From a virus (lineage: Duplodnaviria > Heunggongvirae > Uroviricota > Caudoviricetes), in the IMG/VR virus record IMGVR_UViG_3300028591_000113, positions 1 to 46,086 of that record: a stretch of DNA of 46,086 nucleotides; one strand, given 5' to 3'. Shown here in pieces: positions 10,848 to 46,086 of this stretch. Made by a program: the position numbers and the translations under genes. The notes below the pieces were generated by a model. That model searched no databases, was not told the origin of the DNA, and worked only from the letters and a program-made list of their open reading frames with translations. Numbering within the stretch: the first letter of the stretch is position 1; every line of letters starts with the position of its first letter.

Positions 10848-13800
10848 CTAGTTATAACCAAGTTGTTTTAAAGCACTTTGAATTGCTTCATAAATTGTTT
10901 GTTGATCAGAATCACTTAATTGTACTGATTGACCCATAATATTGAGAATTAAACTATCACCTTGACGTTCGACATCAATATTACTTCAATCTACATTAGG
11001 CATAATAGATGCAAAAGTAGTTTGCATTTGTTGTAAGTAGTTTTGCATACCTAATTCTGTATTATTGCCGCTCGCAGCTTGCGCAGCCATCATTGATGCA
11101 ATCATATCACTTGGATTTTGAGTATCATTCATCATTGCGGTGAGAAGAGCTTGTTCATTAGTAAGAAGCTTTTCTAAGTTCTCGTTAATTTGTGTAACTT
11201 GATCTTCAATACTACTTATCATCGCTTGTTGTGCTTGTTCGCGCAATGTTTTTAATCTTTCAGTTTCTAACTCTTCTAATTGTTTAGTTAAGTCTGCACG
11301 TTTTGCAACCGCATCACTGTTTAAAGAAGAACCTAATTTTGTAATATTTGCAATTAAAGTTTGTGCCTTTTCTTCATATTCTTCTTCTTCATATTCTTTG
11401 TTGATTGCATCGAAATATTTTTGATATGCCTCTTTACGCTTTTCTAGAGATTCTGTTAAAGCATCTGTCTCTTTTTGAAGAAGGTCTTTATACATCTCTA
11501 ATTGCGCTTGTTGTTGGTCATAACGCATTTGTAGAGATGCTAAATAAACTTTACTAAGGTCTTCAAGTTCTTTTTTATTTTGTTCTAATTCACGAATGTA
11601 AGCATAATCTAATTCTTGACGTGCATATTCAATTTTTAACTGTTTATCAATATCATTAATAAGTTGTTTACGTTGTTTTCTTAAGGCGTCATTAGCACGT
11701 AATGCTTCTTCAATTCTAGCATAATTGCCACTTTCAAAAGCTTGTAATAAGACACCACCTTGTTCTCCTTTAAATAAATCAGCATGTTCAGAAATAAAGG
11801 AGGTTTTATCTGTATCAGACATTGTTGCTCATTCTTTCGCTTTTTCATAAAAACCGTTAACAGTATTCTTAAATTTATCAATATTTTGACCCATATTAAG
11901 AATTGTGGTTCCAAAGGCTTTATCATAAGCATTTAAGATTGAATCATAATTATCCATTCCAAACATATCGGCAATAGTATTACTTAAGTCCGCACCAGTT
12001 TGTAGAAGTTGGAACATATCATCTAATACCTTTGCGGATTCGTCAGCAGTATAACCAATTTTTTGAATAGCTGATGCTAATTCATTAATACCATCAATAT
12101 CTGCACCAATAGCATCAATATAATCAAGAGTATCTTTAGACATGGTTGAGAATGTTTGCCATTCTTTATTAATAGTCTTAAAAGCTTTAAGAATTTCAGG
12201 ATCGCCTAATTCTGCAACTGCTCCACGCAATTCTTTAAATGCTTCAACTCTCTGACTGATTGTATAATCATCAGATTGAAGAATACTTGCCGCATCTCCT
12301 TTGCTACCTAATGCTTTAATATATTGATTAATTTGAGAAGGATTTGCTAATAATGCGGCTGCTTTTTCTACTGATAAGTTAGATAACATATTTTGTGTCA
12401 TCTTTTCTATATCTTTAGCATATTTTGCATTATCTTTTGATAGCTTTTTAAACTCATCAATTTGTTCATACAAATAAGCATTATTTAAAGAATAAATTGC
12501 AGCTTGAGCTTGAGTAATTTCTGCATTATTTGAAGGATTTGTTATAAAATCTCTTCAGTTTTGTCCACCTTTGTTTCTAAGGTCTATAATTTTATTACGT
12601 TGTGCATTACGTTTGGCAGCTAAATCTCTATCTGTTCTTTCTCTAATTTCTTGTAAATAATGATATTTACCAGTAGTATCTAATGTATTAAAATATTCTT
12701 TTTCTTCATCTGAAAGACTATCTGCTGCACTATCTAAGAGTGTAGCCATTTCTTCTAAGTCTTTATTAGTTTTAAGAATCTTATTGTCTAAGTCTTCAAA
12801 TTTAGAAATAACATTATTTAGTTCTTGAGATTTTTTATTTAATTCGTAAATTTCTTTAGATAATTTATTAATATCTTTTGCTGCTTTTTCGGCACCACTA
12901 TCTTGTTTAAAAGCTCCAGCAGATGCAGCAATAGCTAATCCCATACCTAATAGGACTGCTAATAATGCACCTGCAATAGCAATACCAGCGATAACACCAG
13001 GAATACCTGCAGATGAGAATGCACTGATGATACCAGCAGCCATACCACTACCTTGAGCAGTGGCTTTTTCCATTTCGGCTCCAGTTTGTACTTTTGCTGC
13101 TGCAGCACTCTTTAATTGTGCAGCCGCGTATGCTTGTTGCAAAGTATTAATAATGGTTAAAATAGAGATAATTGGAGTCATTACAGATGCTAAATTACCT
13201 CAAATTTCTCCAATACCTGCTGCATTTTGGGCAATTTGTATGTCTGTATTTAACATATCTAGTTTAGCACCATTGATTTGTGTATCAACTAAAGCCAATT
13301 CTTTATTAATGGCAAGTTCATCTTGTGTGGTGTCTAACATTGCAGCTTGTTGTGCTTGTAATGCCGCAAAATCGTTGGATTTATCTTTATCTAATAAAGC
13401 TAGTTGGGCTTGAAGTTTTAACTCTTTTTGGGTTAATTTTACACCAGGTAATTTTGCCTTAGCTTCTAAAAGCGCAGCCTGTCTAGCTTGGAGTATAAGA
13501 AGTCTTTGTTTAAGTTTTTCTTTATTTTCTTCTAAAACTAATCTATTATGAGCTTTTTGCATCTCATAACGTTTAGTTAAATTAATTAATAATACACTAC
13601 CAACTGTCACTAATGTCATAATTAATGTAACATCATTAGATAGAATATCAGCAATTCATTCCATGAGGTTGGCCACACTATTAATAAGACCAATAATTGC
13701 ATTGCTGTCTGTAACTGCTGTAACAATATTCTCCCAAGCGACATTAACTTTGTTTAATGCAGCATCCATACCTTCCATGTATGTTGCCATTTGAGCCATT

Positions 13801-15536
13801 GTAGCGCCTTGTGAACGTTCTGCAATTTCTTGTAATTCAATAACACGTTCATAATCACTCATCATAGCAATTAAACGTGATTGTTGACGAGTACCGGCTA
13901 AAGCCTTAGCAATAGCAGCTTGTTGGTTTGCATTTAATTCATCTCACTTTCCACCGAGTTCATTTAAGACTTCTTCAGTAGAACGAAGTTCACCATTATT
14001 ATCTCTTAACGCAATACCAATGTATGCTAATTGACTTTCAACATTGTTGATGTCAGTATCACCACCAAGAGTTTCACCATAGTCGCTTAATTCACGCATA
14101 CGTGCAATAACTGTTTTTAAAGCAGTACCAATAGTTTCTGGTGCTTCTCGTGTGGTTTCAATACCTTTTGTTAAAAGGGCAGTTGTATAATCGATTGACA
14201 TACCAGCAAGATTTGCTTGCGCCGCAACCTTACTTAAAGCAATCGCAATTTCTTCATATGAAGTCGCAGCTGATGCAGCAACTGCGGCAAATTTATCGGA
14301 AACTTTCATGGCATCGTCTGCAGAAAGACGGAAACCATTAATAGCAGTAGTTAAATAGTTAATAGAATCTGCAGCACTAATACCAGCAACTTTCGCAGCT
14401 GAAACTGCAGCTTCAGTTAATTTTAAAGATTCATTAATACTACGACCTTGACGTAAGAATTGAGTCATAGTACTAGAAACTTCTTTTGTAGTTGTACCAA
14501 GACGTGAAGCCATATCTTGATAGTCTTTTAATAAGCCATAAGTTTGTTTACGTGTCAAACCAGTAACCATGGCTTGTTCTGTTAAAGCACGGTCAATTTC
14601 TTTAATAGTTTTAACCGCTTCATGCATAGCCTTTTTAATAGTACGATATGCAATAGCATAAAGTGAAAATTGCTTTAAAACACTTCCTAAAGAATTAGAT
14701 TGTTTATTTAAAGCTTTTGTTGTATTTTCTATTGCAGCCGCATTTGTAGCAGAATTTTCTTTTTGATTTTCTTCTGCGTTGGCATTTAATTGATTATTTG
14801 TTTGTACTAAAAAATCTTTTTGTAAATCTTGAGCTTGAGCAACTTCTGGAGCAGCTTGAGAGCTACTTTGTTCTGTTGCAATTTTACTGTTAATCTCATT
14901 AATCTTTGTAGCAAGATCTGAAAGTTCTTTGTCTAATTGTTTAACGTCTTCTTTAATTTTAAATTCTTCATTAATAATTTCTTGAAGAGTTTTCTGAGCA
15001 CGTTCATAATCTTGTTGAGATTTAAAAACACCTTGTCAAGTGCCTTGGTCTTTTGCTTTTTCAACATTAGTACGTAATGTTGCAGGGTCTACGCCTTGTC
15101 GACCATTGGCATAGTAAATATTGCCTTGTGCAACCGTTTTTCTGGCTCAAGTATCTTTTGAACTTAAATATCCTTTTTCATCAACTCTACTTTGTAAATT
15201 ACTACGTAATTCAGTGCGTTTACTTTGACTTGTAGTAAGTTTACTTAAGTCACTATAAAGTTGTTTTAAATTCTTTGAAACATTGCCAGATTCAAGTCCA
15301 AATTTAATAATAGCTTTAGTTAAATCATTAAATTGTGCACGAGCAGAAGAAATTTGTTGTGAATTCTTTGGATTCATTGCTTCTAAGAAATTTTCCAAAG
15401 ATTTCAACATCGCATCAATTTCTTGTTTCTTTTTTGGATTAGACTTAAAAGCGCCTTTATTATCTAAAGACTCTACTAAACCTTTAGCTTGCTTAACGTC
15501 CGCTTGAAGATTGACTTTTAAATCTATATCTGCCAT
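10848..15536 (-). CDS. Tape measure protein, 1562 aa (code 4)
   Basis: Six ORF-track fragments join in frame through 8 TGA. TP901-type TMP core (LTEQAMVTGLTR...AVSAAKVA...AEEIAIALSKVAAQA...IGTALKTVIARM), long Ala/Gln-rich helices and a hydrophobic segment. Confidence 0.92.
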
Positions 15537-27879: not shown

Positions 27880-29691
27880 CTAATCAAAGAAGGATATTTG
27901 TCGTAATCCTTTGGACATTTTACGTCTCTTTTTATAATAGTCTAATTCAAAATGTTTGTTTACGCCATAAACCATATATTCCATCATGGAGAAAAAGTCC
28001 TTTTGAATACTGGTATCACGACGAACAATTTTTAATGTATTACTGAGTTGGTCTGATGTATTTACTATATCAAGGTTACGAAGTTCCATTTCTGCTTTAT
28101 CCATTGTTTGATAAACTTGTAAGAAATGTTTTTGTCTCTTGATACTCATTTGAGTGAATGATTTATTCTGACTGTAGAGTGAGAGCGCATCAGATAATTT
28201 TATAGGGAATGTAATGGCTCCTGTACTCATTCTTGAGAAGAAGAAGAAGTGAATTTCTTCACCAGTCTTACCACCAGATTTTATCTCATAACATATTGTC
28301 TTCTCTTTTGGATATTTTCGCAAATCTTTGCTTGCATTATCTGGAGGATTTATAATTCCTAGTCCTTCGTATAAAATTCCTTGCTTGTCTCGTGTTTCCT
28401 TATTAAGCCAGTCACGCATGGCCGCGCCAATACCGTTAGCGTCGTAAATAAGTAACTTGGCATTATAAGTAAGGACTAGTTTCTTAAACTCATTCGCAAT
28501 TTCCATATAGTCAGTAGAAGGAATGGTTAAGAGGTTAATGAATTTATAAGTGAAATAATGTTCTTTAGGAATGACTCGGGCAACACCGACTGCCGTTTCG
28601 GCAGAACCATCCTTAGCCATATCGGCGCATATTACATAAAATTCATTATTTTCTACTGCCATATCTGAACGCTTATCTTTGAGTTCAATAAGTTTAACCT
28701 GGCGTAACGCCGCAACGACTGATGAGCTGAAGGCCGCACCTTGAGGCGCATCACTCCAACGACTCAAGTATTCTCTAGCAAAAGATGCAGGAGAGAAAGA
28801 AGGAGAATTTCTAACTTCATCAATTTGTTTTTGAGCGGTTAAACCAAGTTTTAATGGTATCATATATGTTCCACCAAGAACAAAATACTTGTCTGGTTCT
28901 AGGATAGACATACATAAAATTTCTAATAGTTTTTGATAAGCAAAGGTTCCTTGATACCCCGCAGTAGTAATATATATTTGTTGAGATTGCGGTTCATTTG
29001 GATTAATTAAACCATTTGCCATTGTACGAGGTCTGTTAAGTAATGGAATATAAACTTCGTTAACTTTAGTGGCATCTTGTTCAATAATTTCTTCGAAGAT
29101 TAATGATTCTCTACGAAGACCTCTGACGTTACCTAAGTCAAGATGCGAACCATTTTTAAAGGCAAATTCTACATAGTCTGCGCCCATTTTATAGGCATCA
29201 AGTAATTTGCCTGCAATCTTACGTTTTTGCATCTCGTTCGCGAGGAGCGGGAATTTTACTCATAGGTCATCGACGACTTTTTGCTTTGCGATTTCAGCCG
29301 CTTGTTTATTTGTACCAGCGGTAATAGTTGTGTTATGGCGAGGAATAAACATACAGTGTAAATAACGATCTAGGTCTGCCAAGAAAGATTTAGAAGTACC
29401 ACGGCTAAAGAACATATATGAGTTATTGCCTCTTGCCATACAACGCATAATCATACGTTGGAAAAAGAACAAATGAAAGTGACTTGATTTCGGAGTAATC
29501 AAGTCTACGAAGTAGTCAGGATATGCAATAAAAAAGTTAAGAAAATTTCCAACTTCTTCAAAGTTTTCATTAATTCTTTTCTTTGTTAAGAAGCCTGTAT
29601 GGTCCTGCTCATCTTCATCCAGGAAATTAAAATAGTCTTCAATTTCTGAATCTATGGAATCATCAAAAATGTCGTCTGATATAAGTCCCAT
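27880..29691 (-). CDS. terL: Terminase large subunit, 603 aa (code 4)
   Basis: Walker A-like FSRGTSKS, Walker B LIFEE, ITTAG coupling motif, nuclease ICADMA. One TGA at 29260 (DDL-W-VKFPLLANEM). Confidence 0.9.
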
Positions 29692-31144: not shown

Positions 31145-32146
31145 ATGATTGTATTAAGTATCATATTATCTATAATATGTGTAATATTACTTGGCTTAAG
31201 TATCTATGCTTTCAACCTAAGTCGAAGTTGTCGCCGCATCAAAGACGACTTAGCGCAAGCTAAAGCGAAGCGGGACAAGTTTGAAGCTCTCGCGAACCTT
31301 TACGAAGAACAAAATAAAGACCTCCATGAAAAATTACTACAGAAGGAAAATGATGCTGGTTTCGCGCAAGGTCAACAAGTTCAAGGAGAAGTCCAAGTAC
31401 GCGATGTCGCCGCAGAACTAAATAGTCTTAAAGAACAAAAAGAGATAGAGGCTTTGAAAGTCTCAGGCCTAGCGTTTACCAATTACATGTTTCTTCAGTC
31501 TCTCGCGACTTCTAAGGAAGAGCAATTACAGGTAGCAAACGTTACTCATGGCCTGGAGAACCGCAATAGAGAATTGTTAGAGGAACAATCCACTCTTCAG
31601 GGTGATGTGAAAAATTTACGTAATGAATTGAACCGATACCTTGCCATTAGAGAGGTTGTCGATAAAAGTATCAACGACGTTATTTGGTCTCCGATTTTGA
31701 AGGAAAAAGAAGCCAAATTGGTAGATATCTTAGATGAACTCAAGGATTTATATCCAGATCTTGCGATAGATTTCGCCAACATTGAGTGGAAGAAAATATG
31801 GATGCCGCAACTTCAAGAATTGGGCAGTGCCATCGATAAAGTTAGAGGTATTTATAGATTAGTATTGAAAGGTACTAAAAGTTGGGTAGTCGGCATAGAC
31901 CCACACGATGCGCCGATACTGGCCAGTTACGTCGGTCAGGCTGTGGATATCAAGGAAAGATGGTATCAGCATGTTAAAAAGATGGTCGGCGTAATGAGTA
32001 AGGGCAATGAAAGATTATATAATTATCGACCTGAAGATTTTGATTGGTGCATTGTACAACAAGGTAGTAATGTAGATTTAAATGAAAGTGAAAAATACTG
32101 GATTGATTACTATTGCTGCACCGATGCACTCAACAAGAAAAGGTAG
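31145..32146 (+). CDS. Membrane-anchored coiled-coil protein with C-terminal GIY-YIG nuclease domain, 333 aa
   Basis: N-terminal hydrophobic helix, heptad-rich middle, GIY...YVGQAVDIKERWYQH and E..WIDYY. Confidence 0.75.
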   Translation: MIVLSIILSIICVILLGLSIYAFNLSRSCRRIKDDLAQAKAKRDKFEALANLYEEQNKDLHEKLLQKENDAGFAQGQQVQGEVQVRDVAAELNSLKEQKEIEALKVSGLAFTNYMFLQSLATSKEEQLQVANVTHGLENRNRELLEEQSTLQGDVKNLRNELNRYLAIREVVDKSINDVIWSPILKEKEAKLVDILDELKDLYPDLAIDFANIEWKKIWMPQLQELGSAIDKVRGIYRLVLKGTKSWVVGIDPHDAPILASYVGQAVDIKERWYQHVKKMVGVMSKGNERLYNYRPEDFDWCIVQQGSNVDLNESEKYWIDYYCCTDALNKKR

Positions 32147-32899: not shown

Positions 32900-33400
32900 A
32901 TGAAAAAGGCAATTTTATTAAGCATTTTAGCACAACAACAACAACAAACCAAAAAGACAACAAGACAAGATATTATCTCACTCGTTGCAAACCTCGTGCA
33001 AAAGCACATTAAAGACAATGCCGAAATTAACGGCATTAACTTAACACGCGACCAAATCGGTGTTAATCTCGGTGAAGTCGTTGAAGTGATTATGAAATCA
33101 CTTTATAGAAACAAACTCGCCAAATCTTCCAGCAATCAACACTTTGACTTAACCGCCAAAGGTGAAAAAGTAGAGGTTAAGTTTACAACTAGCGACGCCT
33201 ATGCGCACCCAATCAACAAGAACGAAAAAGTAGGTTATTACTTAATCGTTGCTTATAGCAAAAAACTCGGTGGTATGGTGTTCAAAGTCCCATACGAAAA
33301 CCGAAACGAAATTGATACAAACAACCAAGCGCGTATCACTATCAACCAAAAACAAAAGTTCTTTGATAAAGAACTCACTGCAAGAGTGTTCGGGGCATAA
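32900..33400 (+). CDS. Hypothetical protein with PD-(D/E)xK-like motif, 166 aa
   Basis: SD GAGGA favours ATG 32900; HFDLTAKGEKVEVKF resembles D-xn-E-x-K. Confidence 0.6.
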   Translation: MKKAILLSILAQQQQQTKKTTRQDIISLVANLVQKHIKDNAEINGINLTRDQIGVNLGEVVEVIMKSLYRNKLAKSSSNQHFDLTAKGEKVEVKFTTSDAYAHPINKNEKVGYYLIVAYSKKLGGMVFKVPYENRNEIDTNNQARITINQKQKFFDKELTARVFGA

Positions 33401-33795
33401 TCCCCGAACCTCTTAAAGAGTTAACCGCAAAAGTAGGTTAATTCTTTAAGAGGTATCTATCACCTCAGTAAGATAGACGGAATACCTATATCTTCCGCAA
33501 ATGTAGGTTAGCACAAAAGGGAGGTGCTGTAAAAGATAAGGTCAATCCGCGTCCTACCTCGTGTTAATGGTAGGTTGTAAGGGTCTCAAAGAATGCCCAA
33601 GAGAGTACTGCGTAAAACGAGGGAAAAAGTAGGTTAGAGGCAAACCACGGATAGACAACAAAGACACTATCAAAAAACTCGGGTCAAAGACCTTGCGCCG
33701 TGCCAATGTAGGTAGACGGAAAACCGCAAAAGTGGGGAGTGGGTATTCACTCCTGCAAGAGATAGACGGAATTGAAGAAAGGTAGGTTAAAAACT

Positions 33796-33951
33796 ATGGC
33801 AAAAGATTTATTACAAGCAATTTACTATCACGAAATGCGCTTAAAATTATTGCGCAGTTGCCCATCGGCAAACAAATCACTCAAAAACAAAATCACACAA
33901 CTTGAAAACGAACTCCACGCGTTAAAAGTGCGCTATATGACCGCATACTAG
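33796..33951 (+). CDS. Small hypothetical protein (51 aa), absent from the ORF track
   Basis: SD AAGG, ATG 33796, TAG 33951; flanked by a 31-bp direct repeat. Confidence 0.65.
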   Translation: MAKDLLQAIYYHEMRLKLLRSCPSANKSLKNKITQLENELHALKVRYMTAY

Positions 33952-33982
33952 ACGGAATTGAAGAAAGGTAGGTTAAAAAATT

Positions 33983-34165
33983 ATGGCTTTCAATTTCAAA
34001 GAAGAACTCATCAAAGAGGGTAGAGAACTCCAAAGTAGGTTAATCGCCTACAAGAACCTTCCGCAGACGGAAAGTTCAAAAGAGGGTATGGAACGTATCA
34101 AATGTAGGTTAGATATGATTAGCACATACCTTCGTGTAAAATATAACATCATGGCTTACAAATAG
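33983..34165 (+). CDS. Small hypothetical protein (60 aa)
   Basis: Same upstream element as 33796; similar C-terminus. Confidence 0.7.
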   Translation: MAFNFKEELIKEGRELQSRLIAYKNLPQTESSKEGMERIKCRLDMISTYLRVKYNIMAYK

Positions 34166-34182
34166 ACGGAAAAACCTTCCGT

Positions 34183-34223
34183 CCTTAGCCAAGCCTTAAA
34201 TGTAGGTTAGGGCTTGGCTAAGG
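34183..34223 (+). other. Long hairpin with TGTAGGTTA in the loop (terminator or processing site)
   Basis: CCTTAGCCAAGCC/GGCTTGGCTAAGG arms. A similar hairpin lies at ~33,409-33,453 (CCTCTTAAAGA/TCTTTAAGAGG). Confidence 0.6.
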
Positions 34224-34308
34224 GCAGACGGAAAGTGGTGCAAACCACTTGCAAGCAACCCTTAAAAATGTTATAATAGTAGCGTAGAAAGAAAGGTAGG
34301 AAAAACAA

Positions 34309-34794
34309 ATGAAAGATTACGCAGACGGAAAATTAAACATCTATATTGATATGGATGGCGTGCTTGCTGATTTCTTCGGCGAGCCAAACAACCTCAAAAG
34401 GTTTGAGACGGAAAAGGGCTTCTTCCGTAGGTTAAAACCCTTCAAAAAGAATGTCCAAGCGGTTAGAAAGTTAATCGCAGACGGAAAACACAATGTGTTT
34501 GTCTTATCGGCAAGTCCAAACGAACGCGCTGATACCGACAAGAGATTATGGTTAGCGCAATATATCCCCGAACTCGAGACGGAAAATGCCATTATTATGA
34601 GAAATGGCGAAAACAAGACCGACTATATGAGAACGGCAGACGGAATTCTCTTTGATGACTACGGCAAAAATATCCAACAATGGTTATGTAAAAATCTCGG
34701 TTGTAATAGAGCCGTAAAGATTAGGACAGACGGAGACATAGCCGATGGACTTAAAGCCATTCACTTATTCCCAAATGCATTGATAAATGCGTAG
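34309..34794 (+). CDS. HAD-family 5'(3')-deoxyribonucleotidase-like protein, 161 aa
   Basis: IYIDMDGVLADF, VLSASP, K..WL, ILFDDYGKNIQQW motifs. Confidence 0.85.
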   Translation: MKDYADGKLNIYIDMDGVLADFFGEPNNLKRFETEKGFFRRLKPFKKNVQAVRKLIADGKHNVFVLSASPNERADTDKRLWLAQYIPELETENAIIMRNGENKTDYMRTADGILFDDYGKNIQQWLCKNLGCNRAVKIRTDGDIADGLKAIHLFPNALINA

Positions 34795-34878
34795 ACGGAA
34801 AATGACACTAGGGGCTTGAATTGAGCCCCTAAGTGTGATATAATGATAGCGTAGCGAAAGAAAGGTAAGGTAAACAAT

Positions 34879-35061
34879 ATGCGCGAATACATTAACACAC
34901 AAACAGGAGAAATCATACACACAGACGGATTTCGTTTACACGCATACAAGGTCTTAAAGAACGGAGACCACACAACAAGACTTGGAGATGTAATTTCTCT
35001 AAAGAAATATAGACGGAAACAAGCCCGTCAAGCCGCCAAGCATCTGGATGCTCTGTTGTAG
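34879..35061 (+). CDS. Small hypothetical protein (60 aa)
   Basis: Own promoter and SD AAGG. Confidence 0.65.
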   Translation: MREYINTQTGEIIHTDGFRLHAYKVLKNGDHTTRLGDVISLKKYRRKQARQAAKHLDALL

Positions 35062-35315
35062 GTTAAAACTTAGACGGAAATCAAGCAAGCCAGACGGAAT
35101 CCGTCGTGGGGTGAGACGGAAGTAGGTTAAGAATATCAAGCAGACGGAAACTGAAAAATACCCCTTGCAATTCGCTAAGAAAGAGTTTATAATTAGTAGT
35201 GTGAGGTAAAGAAAAAGATAAAGAGAACCTCGCAGACGGAAAATGAAAAAAGTGGTTGAATACCCCACTTAAAAATGATATAATATATATGTAAGAAAGG
35301 TAAGGTAAAAAACTT

Positions 35316-35549
35316 ATGACAAAGAAAACAACAAAGAAAGCATACGAAACAAAGGTCTCAGACGGAAGAATTGAAATCAAGTTAATCGTTCCAACCACAG
35401 ACGGAAAGGCGCATACAGCCAGCGCACCAAACCCATTCGTGTGTCAAGTGGAAGACGCAGACGGAAAAATGGTTATGAAACAATTAACCAAGAAACAGAC
35501 GGAAGCCTTCTTGTTTGACCAAATCAAGCAATACATTAAAGCCCAATAG
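35316..35549 (+). CDS. Small hypothetical protein (77 aa)
   Basis: Own promoter and SD. Confidence 0.7.
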   Translation: MTKKTTKKAYETKVSDGRIEIKLIVPTTDGKAHTASAPNPFVCQVEDADGKMVMKQLTKKQTEAFLFDQIKQYIKAQ

Positions 35550-35649
35550 GGCAGACGGAAATAAGTAAAAACTACTTGTTTCTCTAATGTAGATATGATA
35601 TAATATCTATGTTAGAAAGATAAGTAAAGGAAAGGTAGGGCAGACGGAA

Positions 35650-35910
35650 ATGAAAAAAGTTGTAATGTATGGCAAACATAGTAAAATTGCATTATACACT
35701 GGTAGTGAGACGGAATGTAAAAGATACATTCTAGGTATATGTGAACCGCTCGCAGACGGAAGACGTATCTATCGTAAGTTAGATATGCCAGACGGAACAG
35801 TCTATGATATAGGGCAACCCGTTATGTATCAAATTGTTGACGCGGCAGACGGAGAAATTGGTATCTACAATGAGCCAGACGGAAATCAGCCACCGATAAT
35901 AACGGGCTAG
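35650..35910 (+). CDS. Small hypothetical protein (86 aa)
   Basis: Own promoter; AGACGGAA abuts the ATG. Confidence 0.7.
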   Translation: MKKVVMYGKHSKIALYTGSETECKRYILGICEPLADGRRIYRKLDMPDGTVYDIGQPVMYQIVDAADGEIGIYNEPDGNQPPIITG

Positions 35911-36411
35911 ACGGAAATGAGAAAAAACCACTTGTTTCTCTACAAGTATTATGATATAATACTTGTATAGAGATAAGTAAAATGCTTATCCAAGTTGTCT
36001 TAAATCCTCCTTACAACTACATGCAGACGGAAACAAGAAAATCCCTCTTGTTTCTACATAGGTATTATGATATAATACTTATGTAGAGATAAGAAAGTTA
36101 GTAAGTCCCACAAAGAAGTGGGCAGACGGAAATCTCAAAAAGGTCTTGAATATCATTGAAAAAAATGATATAATAAAGACACAAGAGAAAATGAAAGAGT
36201 TGTAAGTCGCTTGAAACCAAGTAGGGCGCAGACGGAAATCAAAAAAATCTCTTGAATTGAAATCGCATTTATGATATAATAAATGTGTAAAGAAACTTAA
36301 CCCATCTTCCACTTTGAAAAGGAAACGGGCAGACGGAAAACTGAAAAACCACTTGAAAGATAATTCAAGTTATGCTATAATATCTATGTAAGATAAGAAA
36401 GGGGAAAAATT

Positions 36412-36687
36412 ATGGCAGAAAAGAAACAATGGGAAATGAACGAAACCCAAAAATCATTCGTTGAAATCTTAAGAGCAAATAGGGAAAACTACCCAGACGG
36501 AATGACCTTAAGAGAAATCAAAAAGGTCAGTGGTATCGCCTTCAAAACAGGTAGCATTAACACCTTAAAGACCAAAGGTCTTGTCAACACAGACGGAAAA
36601 CGTGAGTTCGTTGCCGATATCGTGTATGACAACGAAGTCATCGGTCATAAGTCCTATGCCGATACAGTCTACGCTCTCGTGGACTAA
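36412..36687 (+). CDS. Winged-helix-like putative DNA-binding protein, paralogue 1 (91 aa)
   Basis: Helix-helix-helix plus beta-wing pattern (MTLREIK...FKTGSINTLKTKGLV...VYALVD); clearly homologous to 41182. Confidence 0.65.
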   Translation: MAEKKQWEMNETQKSFVEILRANRENYPDGMTLREIKKVSGIAFKTGSINTLKTKGLVNTDGKREFVADIVYDNEVIGHKSYADTVYALVD

Positions 36688-37089
36688 TCGGTAGGCAAAG
36701 CCCAGACGGAAGGGCTTAAATGCCCTTCCCCCATTACAATGGGTTCAGACGGAATTTAACTACCTACCTTTCACCCGACTGAACCTATTGTAATGGGTGG
36801 GCACGCTCACCCAGACGGAAATCGGTTCTTCTAGTATACCACTCGCCTACGGAAAAGGAGAAAAGACTAGACGGAATTGTTTGGCTAACCGAGATTAACC
36901 AACCCCATGCCGTAGATATGGAACTAGACGGATGACGATTTCACCACTTTACCAAGAGCGCAGAAAGGGTTTAGAACACAACTAAGGATAAATGTGCGTA
37001 TTGGTCTAACTGAGCCGGAAGTAGGTTAGACCCCACGAGACGGAAAACATTAAAATCTCTTGTATCTCTATTGTTATTATGATATAATA

Positions 37090-37312
37090 ATAACATAAGG
37101 AGAACCCATTAAAGAGTTTCCACTACCACAACTGTGTGTGAAGAGGTTACCAAGTGAGCGCGTAGACGGAAAACTTTGACGAAAGTTTTTAAGGGGCTAT
37201 GTCCAAGACCAGAATAGGTTATCTAGATTATATAGCAGACTATCACACAACTATATAACTGTTGCCTTGCGGTAGACGGAAACTCTTTAATGGGGCGAAA
37301 TGAGAAAACTCC
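37090..37312 (+). ncRNA. Candidate ~200-nt structured small RNA
   Basis: Promoter at 37060-37088, no ORF, perfect 17-bp closing helix 37105-37121/37278-37294, internal hairpins. Confidence 0.5.
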
Positions 37313-37596
37313 AGACGGAAGCGAGTGAACTTCCCTTAAAATCACTCCAGTTAATTGGTTGCTGACCTAACCATCCGCGCAGACGGAAACCTCCTGCCCA
37401 TCTCCATTACTTACCATATCCCTTAATGTCGTTATTAAGTAGGTTATGAAAGTTGGAAAGTTGAAACTCACAGACGGAATAAGGATAACAACCTAAACGG
37501 AGACGGAATTAGAAACAAACTACTTGTTTCTAATAGGTATTATGATATAATACTTATATAGAGATAAGTTAAAAAAGGAAAGGAAGGTAGACGGAA

Positions 37597-38304
37597 ATGA
37601 GAAACTATAACACCTATCTAAAAGGTATGGAAAAAGGAAACAGCGAAAAACTATTCTTCTTAGACAAAATTAACCTAGACGGATTTAACACCATCATTGA
37701 CTTCGGTTGCGGCAAAGGTGATATATTGAAAGCGTGCGCAGACGGAAAGCGCTTACTCATTGGTATTGACCACGACCCTATTATGCGAGAAATCGCGCAA
37801 AAGAATGTGCCTAGTGCGACATTCTTACCTAAGTTAGAAAAACATATGCTAGACGGAAAAACTCTCATTATCTTCTCGTCTGTCCTTCACGAAATTGAAG
37901 ACTACTGGACGGAATTAGAGAAACTCCTCAAAGGTAGTCATGCAACAGTAGTCGTAAGAGATATGCGCTTTACTGGGACAGACGGAACATTAGACAAGAC
38001 GGAATTGGCTAAAATCGTTCATAAGTCTAACCCACATATGCTCGCTGAGTTCGTTGAAAGATATGGTTTGAGTAGACGGAAAGACCTCTATCATTGGCTC
38101 TTAAAGTATTCTTATGTTGACAACTGGGAATTAGAACTCAAAGAAAACTATTTCAGTTTTGATTACAGCAAACTCTTTGCGCTTGGTAAAGTAGTTTATG
38201 AAAATAACTATACACTAGCGTTCAAGAAAAAGAAAGTTAAACAAGATTACGATATTGATTTAACAGACGGAACACATACTCAGTTAATTATTAAGTTAGA
38301 CTAA
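37597..38304 (+). CDS. Class I SAM-dependent methyltransferase, 235 aa
   Basis: IIDFGCGKGD motif I, LIGID, IIFSSVLHEI. Confidence 0.85.
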   Translation: MRNYNTYLKGMEKGNSEKLFFLDKINLDGFNTIIDFGCGKGDILKACADGKRLLIGIDHDPIMREIAQKNVPSATFLPKLEKHMLDGKTLIIFSSVLHEIEDYWTELEKLLKGSHATVVVRDMRFTGTDGTLDKTELAKIVHKSNPHMLAEFVERYGLSRRKDLYHWLLKYSYVDNWELELKENYFSFDYSKLFALGKVVYENNYTLAFKKKKVKQDYDIDLTDGTHTQLIIKLD

Positions 38305-38318
38305 AAGGAGACGGAATT

Positions 38319-38552
38319 ATGACCTTAGAATTAACCTATAAAAGTGAAGGCACACTCAATGTCAACATTGATGAATGTGTTAAAGATTATAAACGACTAC
38401 TTGCAAACGGAAGCGATTGCACTGTTGAAGAATACGTTGATGACTTTTGGGCGGGATTAGATGACCCTATCTATTACTGTGATAACAACGAAGAATTACA
38501 GACGGAAATCTGTAATGCGATGAAAAAACAACTCGCCTTTGAAATAAACTAA
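38319..38552 (+). CDS. Small acidic hypothetical protein (77 aa)
   Basis: SD AAGGAG merged with GACGGAA. Confidence 0.7.
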   Translation: MTLELTYKSEGTLNVNIDECVKDYKRLLANGSDCTVEEYVDDFWAGLDDPIYYCDNNEELQTEICNAMKKQLAFEIN

Positions 38553-38567
38553 AAAGGAGACGGAATT

Positions 38568-38771
38568 ATGAGAAAAGTTTATGCGCTACTTGTAAAGAAA
38601 AATCATACCGACCACGGTTATCTCCCTGTTGCAGTTCAATTCTCTTTCAATAAAGAAGAATTAGACGGAATTGCGGAAGCCATTAACAATCAAGTAGACG
38701 GATGGGGTTCTGCAAAAGTGGAAGAAGTAGACGGAAGCGTTGCTGAATGGAACTTCCCACATCCATACTAG
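38568..38771 (+). CDS. Small hypothetical protein (67 aa)
   Basis: SD AAGGAG merged with GACGGAA. Confidence 0.7.
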   Translation: MRKVYALLVKKNHTDHGYLPVAVQFSFNKEELDGIAEAINNQVDGWGSAKVEEVDGSVAEWNFPHPY

Positions 38772-39083
38772 ACGGAAATGAGTGAAACTACTTGTTTCCT
38801 TAATGTAGATATGATATAATATCTATGTTAAAGAGATAAGTTAATCTCTAATCTACCATGACCAAGACGGAACAAGTCGACTAACCGTTGCGGGGTACAA
38901 TCCAAGGTCAGACGGAATTGTGAAAGTGAGTAGCGTGCCGCACTGGCATAAGTCGCGTGAAAATGGACACACACGGTAGACGGAAAATAAAAATTGCCTA
39001 TTTACAAGCAATTAAAAGCGTGCTATAATTAAGGCACAACAAAGGTAAGAAAAGAAAAAAAACGAAAGGAAGGTCAGACGGAA

Positions 39084-39701
39084 ATGAAAGTATTAGTTCT
39101 TGACACTGAAACATTAGGGGTCGCCGACCCATCAGTCTACAACTTTGGTTATCTAATTTATGATACCGTAGACGGAAAAACACTAGTAGAAAGAGATTAT
39201 ATCTCGACGGAAATCTACGACAACCACCGCGAAATGAGTAAGGCATTTTATAAAAATAAAATCCCACTCTATGAACAACGCTTAGCAGACGGAAGTTGTA
39301 AGAAAATGAAATGGTCTTATGTCTTGCGAATGTTCAAAAGGGACATTAACAAGTTTAAGCCAGACGGAATCTTCGCTTACAATAGTGGCTTTGACTTCCG
39401 CGCCATCGCAAAGACTTGCGAAAAGTTAGGGACTAAGACTAACCCTACATCACACGGAATTAGGGACATTTGGAAAGGTTTGACCGACCCGTTGATTACC
39501 TCAACTCCTGAGTATCAAGATTTCTGCAGACGGAATGGTTATATGACCAAGCACGCTAAACCAAAAGTTAGAGCGACCGCGGAAATTGTATACCGCTACC
39601 TTACGGGGCAGACGGAATACGAAGAAGAACACACTGCTCTTGCTGATAGTAAGATAGAATGTGTTATCCTACAAAGGGCGTTGGCAATTGCCAGCGCCTA
39701 G
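39084..39701 (+). CDS. DEDDh 3'-5' exonuclease, 205 aa
   Basis: VLVLDTET, FAYNSGFD, HTALAD motifs. Confidence 0.9.
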   Translation: MKVLVLDTETLGVADPSVYNFGYLIYDTVDGKTLVERDYISTEIYDNHREMSKAFYKNKIPLYEQRLADGSCKKMKWSYVLRMFKRDINKFKPDGIFAYNSGFDFRAIAKTCEKLGTKTNPTSHGIRDIWKGLTDPLITSTPEYQDFCRRNGYMTKHAKPKVRATAEIVYRYLTGQTEYEEEHTALADSKIECVILQRALAIASA

Positions 39702-39717
39702 ACGGAAAGGAGTAATT

Positions 39718-39939
39718 ATGGTAAAATTATCTATTACATTAGGCGATGATAACAACAAAGAATATCGCAAAGAAATTGAAGTAGAAGTAGACGGAACCAC
39801 CGCTCTTCTTATTAGAGACCGTTGTCGCACAGCCGACCCTGATGACTATGGTCGCGCGTGGGATAATATGCTCTATGCTATTGAAACACAATACCCAGAC
39901 TTACCACGAGATTGGTATGTCTACCACATTGAAAGATAA
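39718..39939 (+). CDS. Small hypothetical protein (73 aa)
   Basis: SD AGGAG favours ATG 39718. Confidence 0.7.
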   Translation: MVKLSITLGDDNNKEYRKEIEVEVDGTTALLIRDRCRTADPDDYGRAWDNMLYAIETQYPDLPRDWYVYHIER

Positions 39940-39951
39940 GGAGACGGAATT

Positions 39952-40362
39952 ATGTTAATTAAAGTTAAACAACCAGACGGAACAATAAGAGAAATTAACC
40001 TCAAAGATAGCGATATCCTCGAGTTCGCAGATTGGTGGAAACTTACACCACTCTCACCACAGACGGATGTTGATGATGCTTTCTATGAAGCCAACCAAAT
40101 TATTAGCGAAACCTTGGCTAATGAATATCCAAAAGACTTAGAAGATTATGGTTATGCTGAATGGGAATACGTTGAAGAAGACGGAATTGACTACCACGAT
40201 GTGTTCCATGATTACTTCCATGAAGTTATCAATGATTGGCAGACGGAAAGTAGAAAAAACTACTTCTTAGAACAACTTGATTATGGTTATGCCGACCTTG
40301 AATACTTCAAAGAAGATGATGAGTATGTCTACTTCCGCGCAAAACGAAGTGAGTTCAGATAA
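39952..40362 (+). CDS. Very acidic, aromatic-rich protein (136 aa), DNA-mimic candidate
   Basis: About 35 D/E residues with many Y/W/F; SD GGAG. Confidence 0.7.
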   Translation: MLIKVKQPDGTIREINLKDSDILEFADWWKLTPLSPQTDVDDAFYEANQIISETLANEYPKDLEDYGYAEWEYVEEDGIDYHDVFHDYFHEVINDWQTESRKNYFLEQLDYGYADLEYFKEDDEYVYFRAKRSEFR

Positions 40363-40396
40363 GAGAGACGGAATTGTCTCTCTTTTCTTTTTTTTT
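40363..40396 (+). terminator. Terminator closing the motif-rich early unit
   Basis: GAGAGAC-GGAATT-GTCTCTC followed by a long T-run. Confidence 0.85.
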
Positions 40397-40439
40397 ATGG
40401 ACGGAATTCCGTCTGGGCGTTCCGTCTATTCATCTTCCG

Positions 40440-40930
40440 TCTGCCATTGTAGGTTAATTGATTTCAATGATTATGTTGCTATTCTTTCCCGACAATCTTG
40501 TTATCCTACTTTGAAGTTAACCTACTTCGCGCCGTGCGGTTTGTAGGTTAATGGTCGCGGGGTGGGGCCCCAAATGTAGGTTAAAGAACCTTTAAGCAGC
40601 AGCAGCTATAAAGGATTTTTGGGACCTCGTAGGTTAAAAATTGGGGTTGAAAAAATTTTCTGTAGGTTAATAATGAACTTTTCCTTGACATTTCCGAATG
40701 TAGGTTAATACAGATTCCGCCTGCGGCGCGGTTGTAGGTTAAGTAGGTTAATTAAAGCAGCAGCAGCCGCACCATATTGCATATTTGGGGTTAACCTACA
40801 CTTTTGTGGGTTAATTTAGTTGTTAATTAGTACTTGACATAGGATCTTGTAGGTTAATAAAGTTAACAACTTTTTATAATATGTTTGTTGTTAGAAATTT
40901 TTCTGGACAAGATCGATTGTAGGTTAATAA
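40440..40930. repeat. Non-coding cluster of about 12 TAGGTTA (usually TGTAGGTTAA) copies in both orientations
   Basis: Plus-strand copies near 40449, 40545, 40577, 40630, 40663, 40700, 40735, 40743, 40850, 40920; minus-strand copies near 40519 and 40792. Confidence 0.9.
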
Positions 40931-40950
40931 AAAAATAAGTGAAGTTTTGC

Positions 40951-41151
40951 TTGAACTACCCGAACGGGTGTGCTATAATTATTTATGTAAGGTGAAAGAA
41001 GAAAAAGAATTAGAAAAAAATAATTCAAAAATGTCTTGACCGATACCCCAAAAATATGATATAATATATATGTAAGGTAAAGGAAGAAAGAAATTAAGAA
41101 TTAAAATCTAATTAAAAACTTCTTGACCTAACACAAAAGTTATGATATAAT
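40951..41151 (+). promoter_or_regulatory. Three tandem sigma70-type promoters upstream of winged-helix paralogue 2
   Basis: TTGAAC-17-TATAAT (40951), TTGACC-18-TATAAT (41036), TTGACC-17-TATAAT (41123). Confidence 0.75.
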
Positions 41152-41181: not shown

Positions 41182-41445
41182 ATGGCTAACAAAAACACTT
41201 GGCAAATCAACGACACTCAAAAGGCTTTCTTAGAAGCCTTAAAGGCTAACAACGGTAAGGCTACCTTATTTGAATTAAACTACTTCAAGGGTTACAACTT
41301 CAAATCTGGTTCCATCAACGCCTTAATCGGTAAGGGCTTAGTCAAAGCCGAAGATGAAGTCACCTACGAATGTGACAAGGTCTACAACGGCGTCAAAGTC
41401 GGTACCGTTAAGGTCACTGCTAAGGTCTACGAATTAGTAGACTAA
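41182..41445 (+). CDS. Winged-helix-like putative DNA-binding protein, paralogue 2 (87 aa)
   Basis: W.IN.TQK.F.E.LKAN...TL.E....FKSGSIN.L..KGLV...VY.LVD shared with 36412; strong codon bias. Confidence 0.7.
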   Translation: MANKNTWQINDTQKAFLEALKANNGKATLFELNYFKGYNFKSGSINALIGKGLVKAEDEVTYECDKVYNGVKVGTVKVTAKVYELVD

Positions 41446-41794: not shown

Positions 41795-43390
41795 AGGTAA
41801 GTAAAGAAATAAATTATTTCTTTCAAACCCCCTGTGCAACAGCTCCCTACTCGGCGTATACTGCACATTAAAAAACAAAGAAGAGAGTCGAAGCCCACTG
41901 AGCAGACAGGGCAGCGCGAAAGGTCCTAAAGTCTGCTCCCTAACATAAGTTGGAACCCCATGACCGGCAGCCGCAAGGCGGGGGCAACGTACCTCAGAGA
42001 AATCGCCGAGCACGGGCTTAAATTCCCCGAAGCAAGAGGCAGGTTGATTCCCTGCAACTCTTCCTTATGTATTCCTGTGTGTGTTCCAGATGTTCGGACA
42101 CCCTATGCGTCAAGGTAATGGCGCAATTGATGGCCGCCCTAGCTAGGATAGTTCGGTCTAGCAGAAACTAGATGGGCGAGATTAAGTTCTCGTTACGGGT
42201 GCAAATCCTCGAGTGGTCCCAAAACACCCACGCAGCAGTGACCAGGGTGAGTACTAAGACGTCAAAACGTGAAAGCCCCTGCTGTACCGCGGGCCAACAG
42301 CCCCAAGCTTAGATATTAACGCGGTATACAAAAGATTGACAGACCTTGGGAAATCCAATGATAGCGACGGACTGCGGTTCTAACTACAGAGAATAAATAA
42401 GGCTCGCCAGCGGCGACTTGGATAGGCTTAAGAGACTAAACACCTGGACGATGAGCATTGCGCATGCATCTAGCCAAAGCGACTCTCGGAGTTGGCGAGA
42501 TCCAACTGGGTAGGATAGACCCCAATCATTCCGACGCAGCGTCGTGCACTGCTCCTCCAACAAGAATGGGGGATGGACAAGATGAATAAGGCAGTGGTGA
42601 GAGTCCACTTTAAACAACCGTTTCTGCACAAAGTCACTCAGCAGAAGAGTTAATCTGCCGTTAGACACAAACGTAATATGTATGTCTCGACTGCCAGAGA
42701 TAAAGGCTAATAAGTCCATTGGCACGGACCAATGCAATTGGGAGAAACATAGTGTAATGGCTACATGAAACATAGTAGAGGAAAATCCATTAAACTCATC
42801 TGGCGTGGTGCGAAACCAGAAGATTGTCATCGTGGTTGGTGACCTATGTAGGCATGATAACAAACCTTATATTGAGGAGCCACTGAGGTAATGGTAACTC
42901 CGACGGCAATTGATAGTGCCTTGAAAACTATCCGCGCGGCAATGGTTTGTGACAGTCGCAACTGTCTAGGATCAACGATGTGCTGGCGACACCCTGACTC
43001 CTGGGTACGGAGATGCCGGAGAGAAACCGGCACAATAGATTTAGCGTGACTACGGGCGCTTAGTTCAGGGTGAGAACTAAAAAATGCTGAGCCGCTACCG
43101 ATGACGTGAGTCGGTGGGTTGTTCCCTTATCACAAAAACCCTCGTCCATGTGGGTATAAACAGAAATGGACGTCAGCCAGAGAAAGTGAACGCCAACGGG
43201 CGTACTGGAAGTCATGCGGCGGCAAACGTGTGCAGTATCTTTGCCGAGGTACTTATTGTAATCCCTTTGTCTTCGCTGTGGCGCGAAGATCCGCTGATAT
43301 CTGTAAACTATCAAACGTGCTGGCGCATCAGCGTTAAAAAATTAAATGAATGCGCGTATTTGAGACCTCTAGCCAGGTCTCTTTTTATTT
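41795..43390 (+). ncRNA. Candidate giant structured non-coding RNA (~1.55 kb)
   Basis: Promoter and terminator bounded, GC visibly about 50% versus about 30% in the flanks, no credible ORF, long-range helix 41850-41867/43229-43248, many GNRA- and T-loop-like hairpins. Confidence 0.72.
43362..43390 (+). terminator. Terminator ending the candidate giant RNA
   Basis: GAGACCT-CTAGCC-AGGTCTC followed by TTTTTATTTT. Confidence 0.85.
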
Positions 43391-45720: not shown

Positions 45721-46086
45721 ATGGCAGAAAAACAATCAAAGTTCACAGTCAACGATAACGACAGACTTATCGCTGGCGCACTCAAAGGTACTGACGGCCT
45801 CACAATCGCAGAATTAAACGAAGCAATCGGTGGTAACTTACTCCCAATTCACTTCAACCATGCTAAAACTGGTGGTTTCATTGAAAAAATCGGTGAAAGA
45901 ACAGTTACAAAACAACGCCCAAGCCAAGTTTGCGTTTATTACTACATCAATAGTGATGTCGCTTCTGATGCTAAAGGCAACCCATGCAACTACTCTGATG
46001 CTCAAAACGCTATCTTAGCCGCTGCTGCTGGTATGGAAGGTGACTTCATCTTATCCGACCTCGCTAAAGCAATGGGTGTTGAAAAA
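45721..46086 (+). CDS. Tandem winged-helix-like protein, distant paralogue 3, runs off the window and is absent from the ORF track
   Basis: MAEKQSKFTVNDNDRLIAGALKGTDGLTIAELNEAIGG...GFIEKIGERTV...VYYY, then a second unit YSDAQNAILAAAAGMEGDFILSDLAKAMG; strong codon bias. Confidence 0.65.
   Translation, partial: MAEKQSKFTVNDNDRLIAGALKGTDGLTIAELNEAIGGNLLPIHFNHAKTGGFIEKIGERTVTKQRPSQVCVYYYINSDVASDAKGNPCNYSDAQNAILAAAAGMEGDFILSDLAKAMGVEK

Follow-up and report, generated by a model that had tools for sequence, protein, structure and literature searches.

The repressor of phage L5 binds more than 20 asymmetric 13-mers that lie both at promoters and within transcription units; these sites are oriented along transcription, and repression depends on that orientation (PMC9283540). 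Here, we focus on an array of a shorter sequence, the octamer AGACGGAA, in a phage of the rumen. The window analysed (46,086 nucleotides; IMG/VR record IMGVR_UViG_3300028591_000113) opens a genome of 130,018 bp, referred to below as G000, of which it covers the first 46 kb; the array occupies positions 33475..40373, termed the zone, where 76 co-oriented copies lie on the + strand at about one per 92 bp. A sequence-only reading of this DNA had held that no phage system like it has been described, which overlooks the stoperators of L5: the array appears akin to asymmetric operator/stoperator arrays, with L5 as the closest precedent by analogy. Nothing on the octamer itself or on a comparable system was found in the literature, and octamers at the density of the zone have not been described before. 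Our reading, put forward tentatively as one that may quite possibly be right, is that the octamers are the asymmetric sites of a putative, probably phage-encoded DNA-binding protein that regulates, most probably by silencing, a distinct domain of immediate-early transcription.

The window contains 81 exact matches to AGACGGAA, against 0.79 expected from shuffled sequences (the maximum in any shuffle was 4). Beyond the zone, an exact search of the other 123 kb of the genome returned only three + strand and two further − strand copies, those within the window being at 14326 (+) and 43403 (−). The sequence-only reading had counted about 75 copies and had described the zone as sharply bounded; count, boundaries and sharp edges all prove correct. 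The conserved core, AGACGGA (83 copies), has C or T as its 5′ neighbour and A or T as its 3′ neighbour, giving the fuller form YAGACGGAAW, and internal symmetry is absent. Recognition appears strict, as the + strand of the zone holds only 12 one-mismatch variants, seven of which differ at position 8 and five at positions 1–7. Spacing is more regular than random (mean 92 bp; coefficient of variation 0.54, compared with 0.98 when placement is random), and no gap between octamers exceeds 239 bp, where a largest gap of about 448 bp would be expected. No helical phasing of the octamers was found, the strength at 10.5 bp being 0.03–0.05 against a noise expectation of 0.05.

The octamer is tied to transcription by its distance from promoters. 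The zone consists of small + strand genes downstream of many strong promoters, which are near-consensus sigma-A-type promoters with extended −10 boxes; this combination bears out its earlier description as an early region. Between 34226 and 39029 on the + strand are 13–14 modules in which an octamer starts 22–23 nt before the TTG of the −35 box, at 34226, 34793, 35142, 35234, 35553, 35909, 36025, 36124, 36230, 36331, 37038, 37501, 38770 and 38978. The order within a module is octamer, A-rich spacer, TTGnnn, 17-nt spacer and TG-n-TATAAT, such that the octamer occupies approximately −58 to −51. The spacer between octamer and −35 box varies in sequence from promoter to promoter but is constant in length, and is A-rich like a proximal UP element. 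All 13 zone promoters detected by a scan have the octamer at 22–23 nt, and the promoter at 39001 is a fourteenth. Outside the zone, none of eight promoters in G000 is linked to an octamer, though they are equally strong, and the same offset is found at none of the 2–12 promoters per phage that lie outside the zones of G000 and its relatives. The promoters at 40951–41151 and 41757 match those of the zone in strength and have no octamer, so the octamer is unnecessary for promoter strength. A fixed distance to the site at which polymerase binds is a property of DNA and not of RNA, and therefore points to a bound protein that acts with or against RNA polymerase. Of four explanations offered from the sequence alone, the best supported is a set of loading sites for a coating or silencing protein, because every promoter of the zone is preceded by a copy at a fixed distance.

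The zone recurs in IMG/VR contigs of other metagenomes (L042, G001/G003, G004, G002 and one contig of 115.7 kb), and is also present in Logan contigs from sheep, goat and bovine gut runs of 14 studies, metatranscriptomes included; recurrence in these independent data rules out an assembly artefact, and that reading was dismissed. The relatives share the promoter geometry. Zone promoters carry an octamer in 7 of 10 cases in G001 (offset 22–23 nt), in 9 of 10 in L042 (21–23 nt) and in 12 of 14 in G002 (24–25 nt), where these 12 account for nearly half of the 26 copies; in G004, 5 of 11 have it at 22–23 nt and a sixth at 13 nt.

The octamers are also written through genes. Thirty-five copies lie within open reading frames (ORFs) in all three phases, of which 23 are read as xDG, nine as E/Q-T-E and three as RR-K/N; the remaining 41 are in non-coding DNA, which makes up 41% of the zone. 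Their settings include genes, ribosome-binding sites, stop codons (TAG-ACGGAA), terminator stems and intergenic DNA. All 76 are in the sense orientation of + strand genes, and the zone has no oppositely transcribed unit. The octamer doubles as translation punctuation: six zone genes stop with a TAG that opens TAGACGGAA (33950, 34164, 34793, 35909, 38770 and 39700), and at three gene starts (38309, 38558 and 39942) the octamer is part of the ribosome-binding site (GGAGACGGAATTATG). Two ORF-free stretches, 35910–36410 and 36690–37597, contain several strong promoters, hairpins and octamers, and are possibly small non-coding RNAs; a search of 32–46 kb returned no Rfam family.

The proteins of the zone bear the imprint of this placement. 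Asp-Gly occurs at 21.8 per 1000 residues in zone proteins compared with 4.8 elsewhere (4.5-fold), and is spelled GAC-GGA in 93% of cases in the zone and in 4% elsewhere. Structural genes of the relatives are about 70–75% identical to those of G000 in DNA sequence, and alignment fails over most of the zone. In the segments that do align, 26 of 27 octamers of G000 are kept in L042, 13 of 19 in G001 and 11 of 11 in G004, against 1.3–3.3 expected. In orthologous proteins some octamers are common and others are gains specific to a lineage, each being read as xDG, E/Q-T-E or RR-K/N. The Asp-Gly excess, the choice of GAC-GGA and retention in diverged relatives together establish selection on the nucleic acid that has reshaped protein sequences, as had been proposed from the sequence.

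Terminase-linked loci were scanned for localised strand-specific words, and three further cases were found. The first, G069, has a terminase 69% identical to that of G000 and an equivalent layout with another motif, GTCAAAAGA: CgGTCAAAAGAAaa occurs 25 times with one polarity over 4.9 kb, some copies being in genes, and 5 of the 25 lie 17–19 nt before a −35 box. In the second, G072 (L158/L159, IMGVR_UViG_3300031992_000074), the motif ACCCGACGGAA shares the core GACGGAA and forms clusters of 4–5 copies at a spacing of about 30 bp; the clusters precede groups of tandem promoters, lie outside coding sequence, and have copies in the opposite sense after the preceding gene. The third, G070, has a partly palindromic 16-mer. 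A layout preserved with a changed motif is seen in one case, G069, and fits a reader that evolves with its phage. The prediction that each relative would have its own octamer holds for G069 and G072 and fails for five relatives that carry the identical one. The 91 kb examined of Geobacillus virus E3, a cultured phage with a terminase 32% identical, yielded no localised strand-specific 8-mer; the wider group therefore does not share the feature as a rule.

At its right end the zone closes with a reversal of polarity. An intrinsic terminator (40361..40395, + strand) holds the last forward octamer (40366) in its stem-loop. Directly behind it is the head-to-head palindrome GACGGAATTCCGTC (40400–40413), within a − strand segment (40399..40442) with reversed octamers at 40407, 40420 and 40435. 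Reversed clusters also follow the zones of G004 and G002, as well as that of G069, where they consist of the motif particular to that phage, whereas none was found after the zone of G001; octamer polarity thus converges on a palindrome and reversed copies in G000, G004, G002 and G069, and not in G001. The palindrome in G004 is AGACGGATCCGTCT. The end of the zone in G004 and G002 has the order terminator, reversed cores, AGCAGCAGC region, promoters and winged-helix gene, and that in G069 the order terminator, two reversed copies, AGCAGCAGC motif, promoters and winged-helix gene. The next early domain of G000 is opened by three tandem strong promoters without octamers (40951..41151, + strand), which drive the winged-helix gene at 41182–41445.

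These features suggest how the array might work. The octamers would mark a single domain, the immediate-early ('pre-early') block at 33.5–40.4 kb, in which strong promoters would fire at once via the host polymerase. As the reader accumulated it would fill all sites, and initiation at this class of promoter would be turned off while neighbouring octamer-free early promoters stayed active. A protein on the −58 to −51 site, beside the A-rich UP-like spacer, could contact the alpha subunit of RNA polymerase or push it aside; on the approximately 60 further sites of one polarity it would form a polar obstacle or a local reservoir along the domain, and the reversed sites behind the terminator would be a domain boundary. 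As a more speculative refinement, the forward orientation might let RNA polymerase pass and the reversed orientation block it, which would explain both the single polarity within genes and the reversed cluster behind the terminator. We infer shut-off, as opposed to activation, because the promoters are near-consensus and no phage protein is present at time zero.

The obvious candidates for the reader are the paralogues of a winged-helix family of about 90 residues. There are 3–4 copies per genome, some as tandem two-domain proteins, and one always lies within the zone. In G000 these include a 91-residue protein encoded inside the zone (36412..36687, + strand), with an orthologue in every relative's zone; an 87-residue paralogue encoded by the first gene after it (41182..41445, + strand); and a tandem two-domain gene at 45721–46086. 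The family signature, TGSINTL..KG, was seen in L120, L122, L123, L150, L154 and L159. The post-zone paralogue is 70–72% identical in G001 and G004, which have the same octamer, compared with a genome mean of 56%, and 39% identical in G069; such conservation among same-octamer phages may hint at a role as reader, and is suggestive only. No Pfam family scores above threshold for these proteins. The AlphaFold model is confident (predicted local distance difference test score, 90.7) and shows a winged helix in which the beta wing is long, and a profile of the family compared with PDB sequences gave a sub-threshold match to the N-terminal domain of T4 MotA (E about 0.2). The solved Cluster A repressor was not matched by this profile, in a search made with the winged-helix family only and not with other zone proteins.

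Several points weigh against a silencing protein as the reader. Transcription-factor sites are usually degenerate, and near-perfect copies such as these are more like the recognition sites of an enzyme. One site per 92 bp within genes also far exceeds the needs of a repressor, and these two properties keep enzyme-type readings alive, namely a nick code like that of T5, a code that protects the phage from its own nucleases for host DNA, and a guide for packaging or entry. The promoter offset in G069 differs by about 5 bp, the ACCCGACGGAA arrays of G072 are oriented the other way, and no leftward promoter was seen for the reversed copies to stop. The winged-helix paralogues stay candidates, since their fold matches are generic (ScpB, ArsR/MarR/PadR and replication terminator protein), and the co-variation of winged-helix proteins with the motif that had been predicted did not appear: among the in-zone, post-zone and tandem paralogues, the presumed recognition helices show no grouping according to the motif. 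Finally, the host order is assigned tentatively through one shared gene, a phage uracil permease that is 58–77% identical to genes in uncultured Bacilli metagenome-assembled genomes of small size (1–2 Mb), and no convincing CRISPR-spacer-type match to 26.1–46.1 kb was found in the candidate host genomes.

One proposal, which we regard as unlikely, is that the octamers are no ordinary operators but a phage-private polar 'self' code on the first DNA, read by a scanning or strand-specific enzyme; the code would protect or process the pre-early segment during destruction of host DNA by the phage. If this were true, it would answer the question posed by T5 of how first-entering DNA survives, and motif and reader would diversify as immunity specificities do. 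A separate alternative, improbable in our view, makes the octamers sites of a strand-specific nicking or modifying enzyme, comparable to the T5 nicks, here on the non-template strand of pre-early genes. All copies do lie on that strand, recognition is all-or-none (76 perfect copies, compared with five variants at positions 1–7), and a conserved gene for a GIY-YIG nuclease (31145–32146) lies just upstream of the zone; T5 and BF23 have both specific nicks and a pre-early block (PMC10644984). The fixed promoter offset of 22–23 nt is left unexplained by nicking or marking, and the only methyltransferase-like gene of the zone does not belong to a DNA-methylase family.

A further alternative, to which we would give a slightly smaller chance, treats the octamers as self-protection marks, that is, a phage-private polar Chi-like signal that attenuates a scanning nuclease (one of the phage's own enzymes for degrading host DNA, or host AddAB) on the first DNA. 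It would suit the even spacing (no gap above 239 bp), the one polarity and the strict recognition, as well as the exonuclease-like and deoxyribonucleotidase-like genes in the zone with the GIY-YIG nuclease beside it. It also resembles the destruction of host DNA by pre-early functions of T5, for which the survival of first-step-transfer DNA is an open question (10.1101/866236). The promoter-linked geometry has no explanation here, and the phage lacks a PD-(D/E)XK (RecB-type) nuclease domain. A host Chi, as suggested from the sequence alone, is disfavoured by the scarcity of the octamer in the order of the candidate hosts: 61 genomes showed no enrichment (7–107 copies per 1–2 Mb, approximately the level of a reversed-pattern control), and 106 genomes contained 15 matches to the octamer–promoter module compared with 16 for the control. 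Provided that the host assignment is right, the octamer is accordingly neither a host word of the Chi or KOPS (FtsK orienting polar sequence) type nor a host promoter element.

Very unlikely, in our judgement, is a polar guide, whether KOPS-like or cosQ-like, that directs an entry motor or terminase towards the palindrome at 40.4 kb. A one-polarity 8-mer ends at a head-to-head palindrome or reversed copies in four lineages, and the conserved non-coding region bearing AGCAGCAGC follows. The KOPS-like signal that had been suggested is disfavoured by the lack of host enrichment or skew and by the absence of an FtsK/SpoIIIE-type motor (PF01580) from the 130-kb phage genome; in addition, the promoter offset is unexplained and G001 has no reversed copies. 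Nor does depth point to a terminal repeat at the zone, as unitig depth there is 34–41 compared with 35–38 to its right, with no twofold step at the resolution of these coarse contig depths.

We give equally little credence to a decoy that titrates a host regulator or defence factor. Multi-copy phage DNA would offer many strict sites, and the difference in motif among related phages might reflect different hosts; yet a decoy requires neither one polarity nor a fixed promoter offset, and candidate hosts show no enrichment of the octamer and no use of it upstream of promoters.

The least probable of these alternatives is a signal in RNA, either a sponge, as had been suggested, or a sequence that an RNA-binding protein or RNase would bind or cut, as T4 RegB acts on GGAG. 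All copies are on the sense strand of early transcripts, metatranscriptome contigs contain pieces of the zone, and in predicted folds octamers are slightly more accessible than matched 8-mers (median 0.065 compared with 0.031; p about 8e-4), an effect that is small and explained by A-rich flanks. A fixed distance to the −35 box is meaningless for RNA, reversed copies lie behind the terminator, and the arrays of G072 are upstream of promoters in the opposite sense. Type III restriction-site logic was dropped, since it accounts for avoidance or for one polarity and not for enrichment, and reversed copies exist.

Besides the winged-helix gene, three genes of the zone have an assignment. A gene resembling an NT5C-type 5′(3′)-deoxyribonucleotidase (34309..34794, + strand; Pfam 3.5e-11) contains seven octamer cores, read as ADG and ETE. 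An S-adenosylmethionine (SAM)-methyltransferase-like gene (37597..38304, + strand) has weak Pfam matches, and an exonuclease-like gene (39084..39701, + strand) matches the PHROG DNA polymerase exonuclease subunit and is kept in relatives. A protein search of IMG/VR found no relatives of the exonuclease protein, the other small zone proteins have no significant Pfam or PHROG match, and a megablast search of the zone against GenBank phages returned nothing. Upstream are the GIY-YIG nuclease gene and the terminase genes, which have the opposite orientation. Terminases with about 30% identity to that of G000 are encoded by Geobacillus virus E3, Tsamsa-like Bacillus phages and lactococcal 949-like phages. 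The large terminase gene (27880–29691, − strand) has a single in-frame TGA at 29260–29262 (..VDDL*VKF..), and its orthologue in G002 is one uninterrupted ORF of 574 amino acids; judged by sequence, the TGA is compatible with recoding of TGA as tryptophan in late genes.

Both edges of the zone are repeat-rich. At the left, copies of a second motif, GTAGGTTA(A), form a cluster on the + strand (33230..34434) interleaved with the first octamers, several of them sitting in ribosome-binding sites or hairpins. The segment 33400–33790 is non-coding and contains nested hairpins formed from GTAGGTTAA and its complement, for example TTAACC-gcaaaagta-GGTTAA within CCTCTTAAAGA...TCTTTAAGAGG. At the right, an ORF-free inter-domain region (40443..40950) contains 10 copies of GTAGGTTAA, GC-rich palindromes and two copies of AGCAGCAGCAGC (40595–40606 and 40756–40767), and the AGCAGCAGC motif is retained in the inter-domain region of all lineages examined. 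AGCAGCAGCAGC is found at the equivalent place in G001, G002, G004 and G069 (L120/L122/L123/L150), other repeats differing, and may represent an origin, a packaging site or a regulator site that has been conserved. In L120 (G001), L122 (G002, about 12400–13150) and L123 (G004), the place that GTAGGTTAA has in G000 and L042 is occupied by the cre-like perfect palindromes TGTAAGCGCTTACA, TGAAAGCGCTTTCA and TGAAAACGTTTTCA, which could be host sites of the CcpA type, or else operators for a different phage regulator. Further to the right, 41850–43150, which is ORF-free and GC-rich, is the most abundant part of the region in a sheep-gut metatranscriptome (contig depth 376–590, compared with 4–25 for the zone), a depth consistent with a highly expressed non-coding RNA.

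Were a silencing protein confirmed as the reader, the zone would be the densest known regulatory DNA code laid over protein-coding sequence in a virus, and a large virulent phage would be seen to wall off and time its immediate-early genes by marking a domain of DNA, with the host RNA polymerase unmodified. With one strict 8-mer per 92 bp, proteins are made to accept Asp-Gly, Glu-Thr-Glu and Arg-Arg, and some stop codons and ribosome-binding sites come from the motif itself. The lineage-specific motifs (AGACGGAA, GTCAAAAGA and ACCCGACGGAA) suggest a diversification like that of immunity systems, and the layout offers a sequence signature for pre-early domains in uncultivated phages. Should nicking or self-protection be correct instead, the finding would bear on how T5-like phages spare the DNA that enters first.

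Comparison with described systems highlights both similarities and differences. The operator/stoperator arrays of Cluster A phages (L5 gp71 and the TipsytheTRex repressor; PMC9283540, PMC6550527) likewise have many asymmetric sites with copies at promoters and within transcription units, an orientation along transcription, and a divergence of site specificity among relatives. The sites described here are shorter (8–10 bp, compared with 13 bp) and more numerous (76 in 7 kb, compared with roughly 20–36 in about 50 kb); they run through coding sequence in three frames, whereas Cluster A sites are in short intergenic gaps, and they keep to a single early domain of a large phage that is apparently virulent. 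At promoters, the copy is centred at about −55 in place of lying over the −35 box, such that the operator-like copy at every zone promoter (−58 to −51) does not overlap that box as it does at L5 Pleft. A search of the winged-helix family gave no two-domain repressor like gp71, and a reversed cluster ends the domain here.

The pre-early region of T5 (10.1101/866236; PMC10644984) is likewise a block of a few kilobases that contains the earliest genes and very strong host-type promoters. In T5, genes for the destruction of host DNA and nucleotides come first and a repeat-rich ORF-free region follows (10.1101/866236). The rumen phage has a complex ORF-free repeat region in the same position, and its NT5C-type, exonuclease-like and GIY-YIG genes are counterparts by annotation only, so that the parallel is suggestive. 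The NT5C-type enzyme would be an analogue of T5 Dmp and not a relative. No dense octamer code is reported for T5; in the rumen phage, contig depth does not indicate a twofold terminal repeat, and 32–46 kb contains no DnaA boxes (TTATCCACA, at most one mismatch), unlike the injection-stop region of T5.

Chi (read by RecBCD/AddAB) and KOPS or SpoIIIE recognition sequences (SRS; read by FtsK/SpoIIIE) are also short (5–8 nt), strict and polar, and KOPS converges on a site as the octamers do; the host chromosome carries them in large numbers and with a strand skew, and a host motor reads them, whereas the octamer is rare in candidate hosts and locked to promoters. The MotA boxes of T4, the C1 operators of P1 and the TF1 sites of SPO1 are similarly phage elements that mark a temporal class of promoter from a fixed place, and the C1 operators are asymmetric and scattered like the octamers. 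These elements number tens at most and are restricted to promoters or operators, in contrast to an octamer written through genes. The array of AGACGGAA is unusual in its density, its placement within genes, its restriction to a single early domain of a rumen phage that is large and recoded, and the lineage-specific motifs of its relatives.

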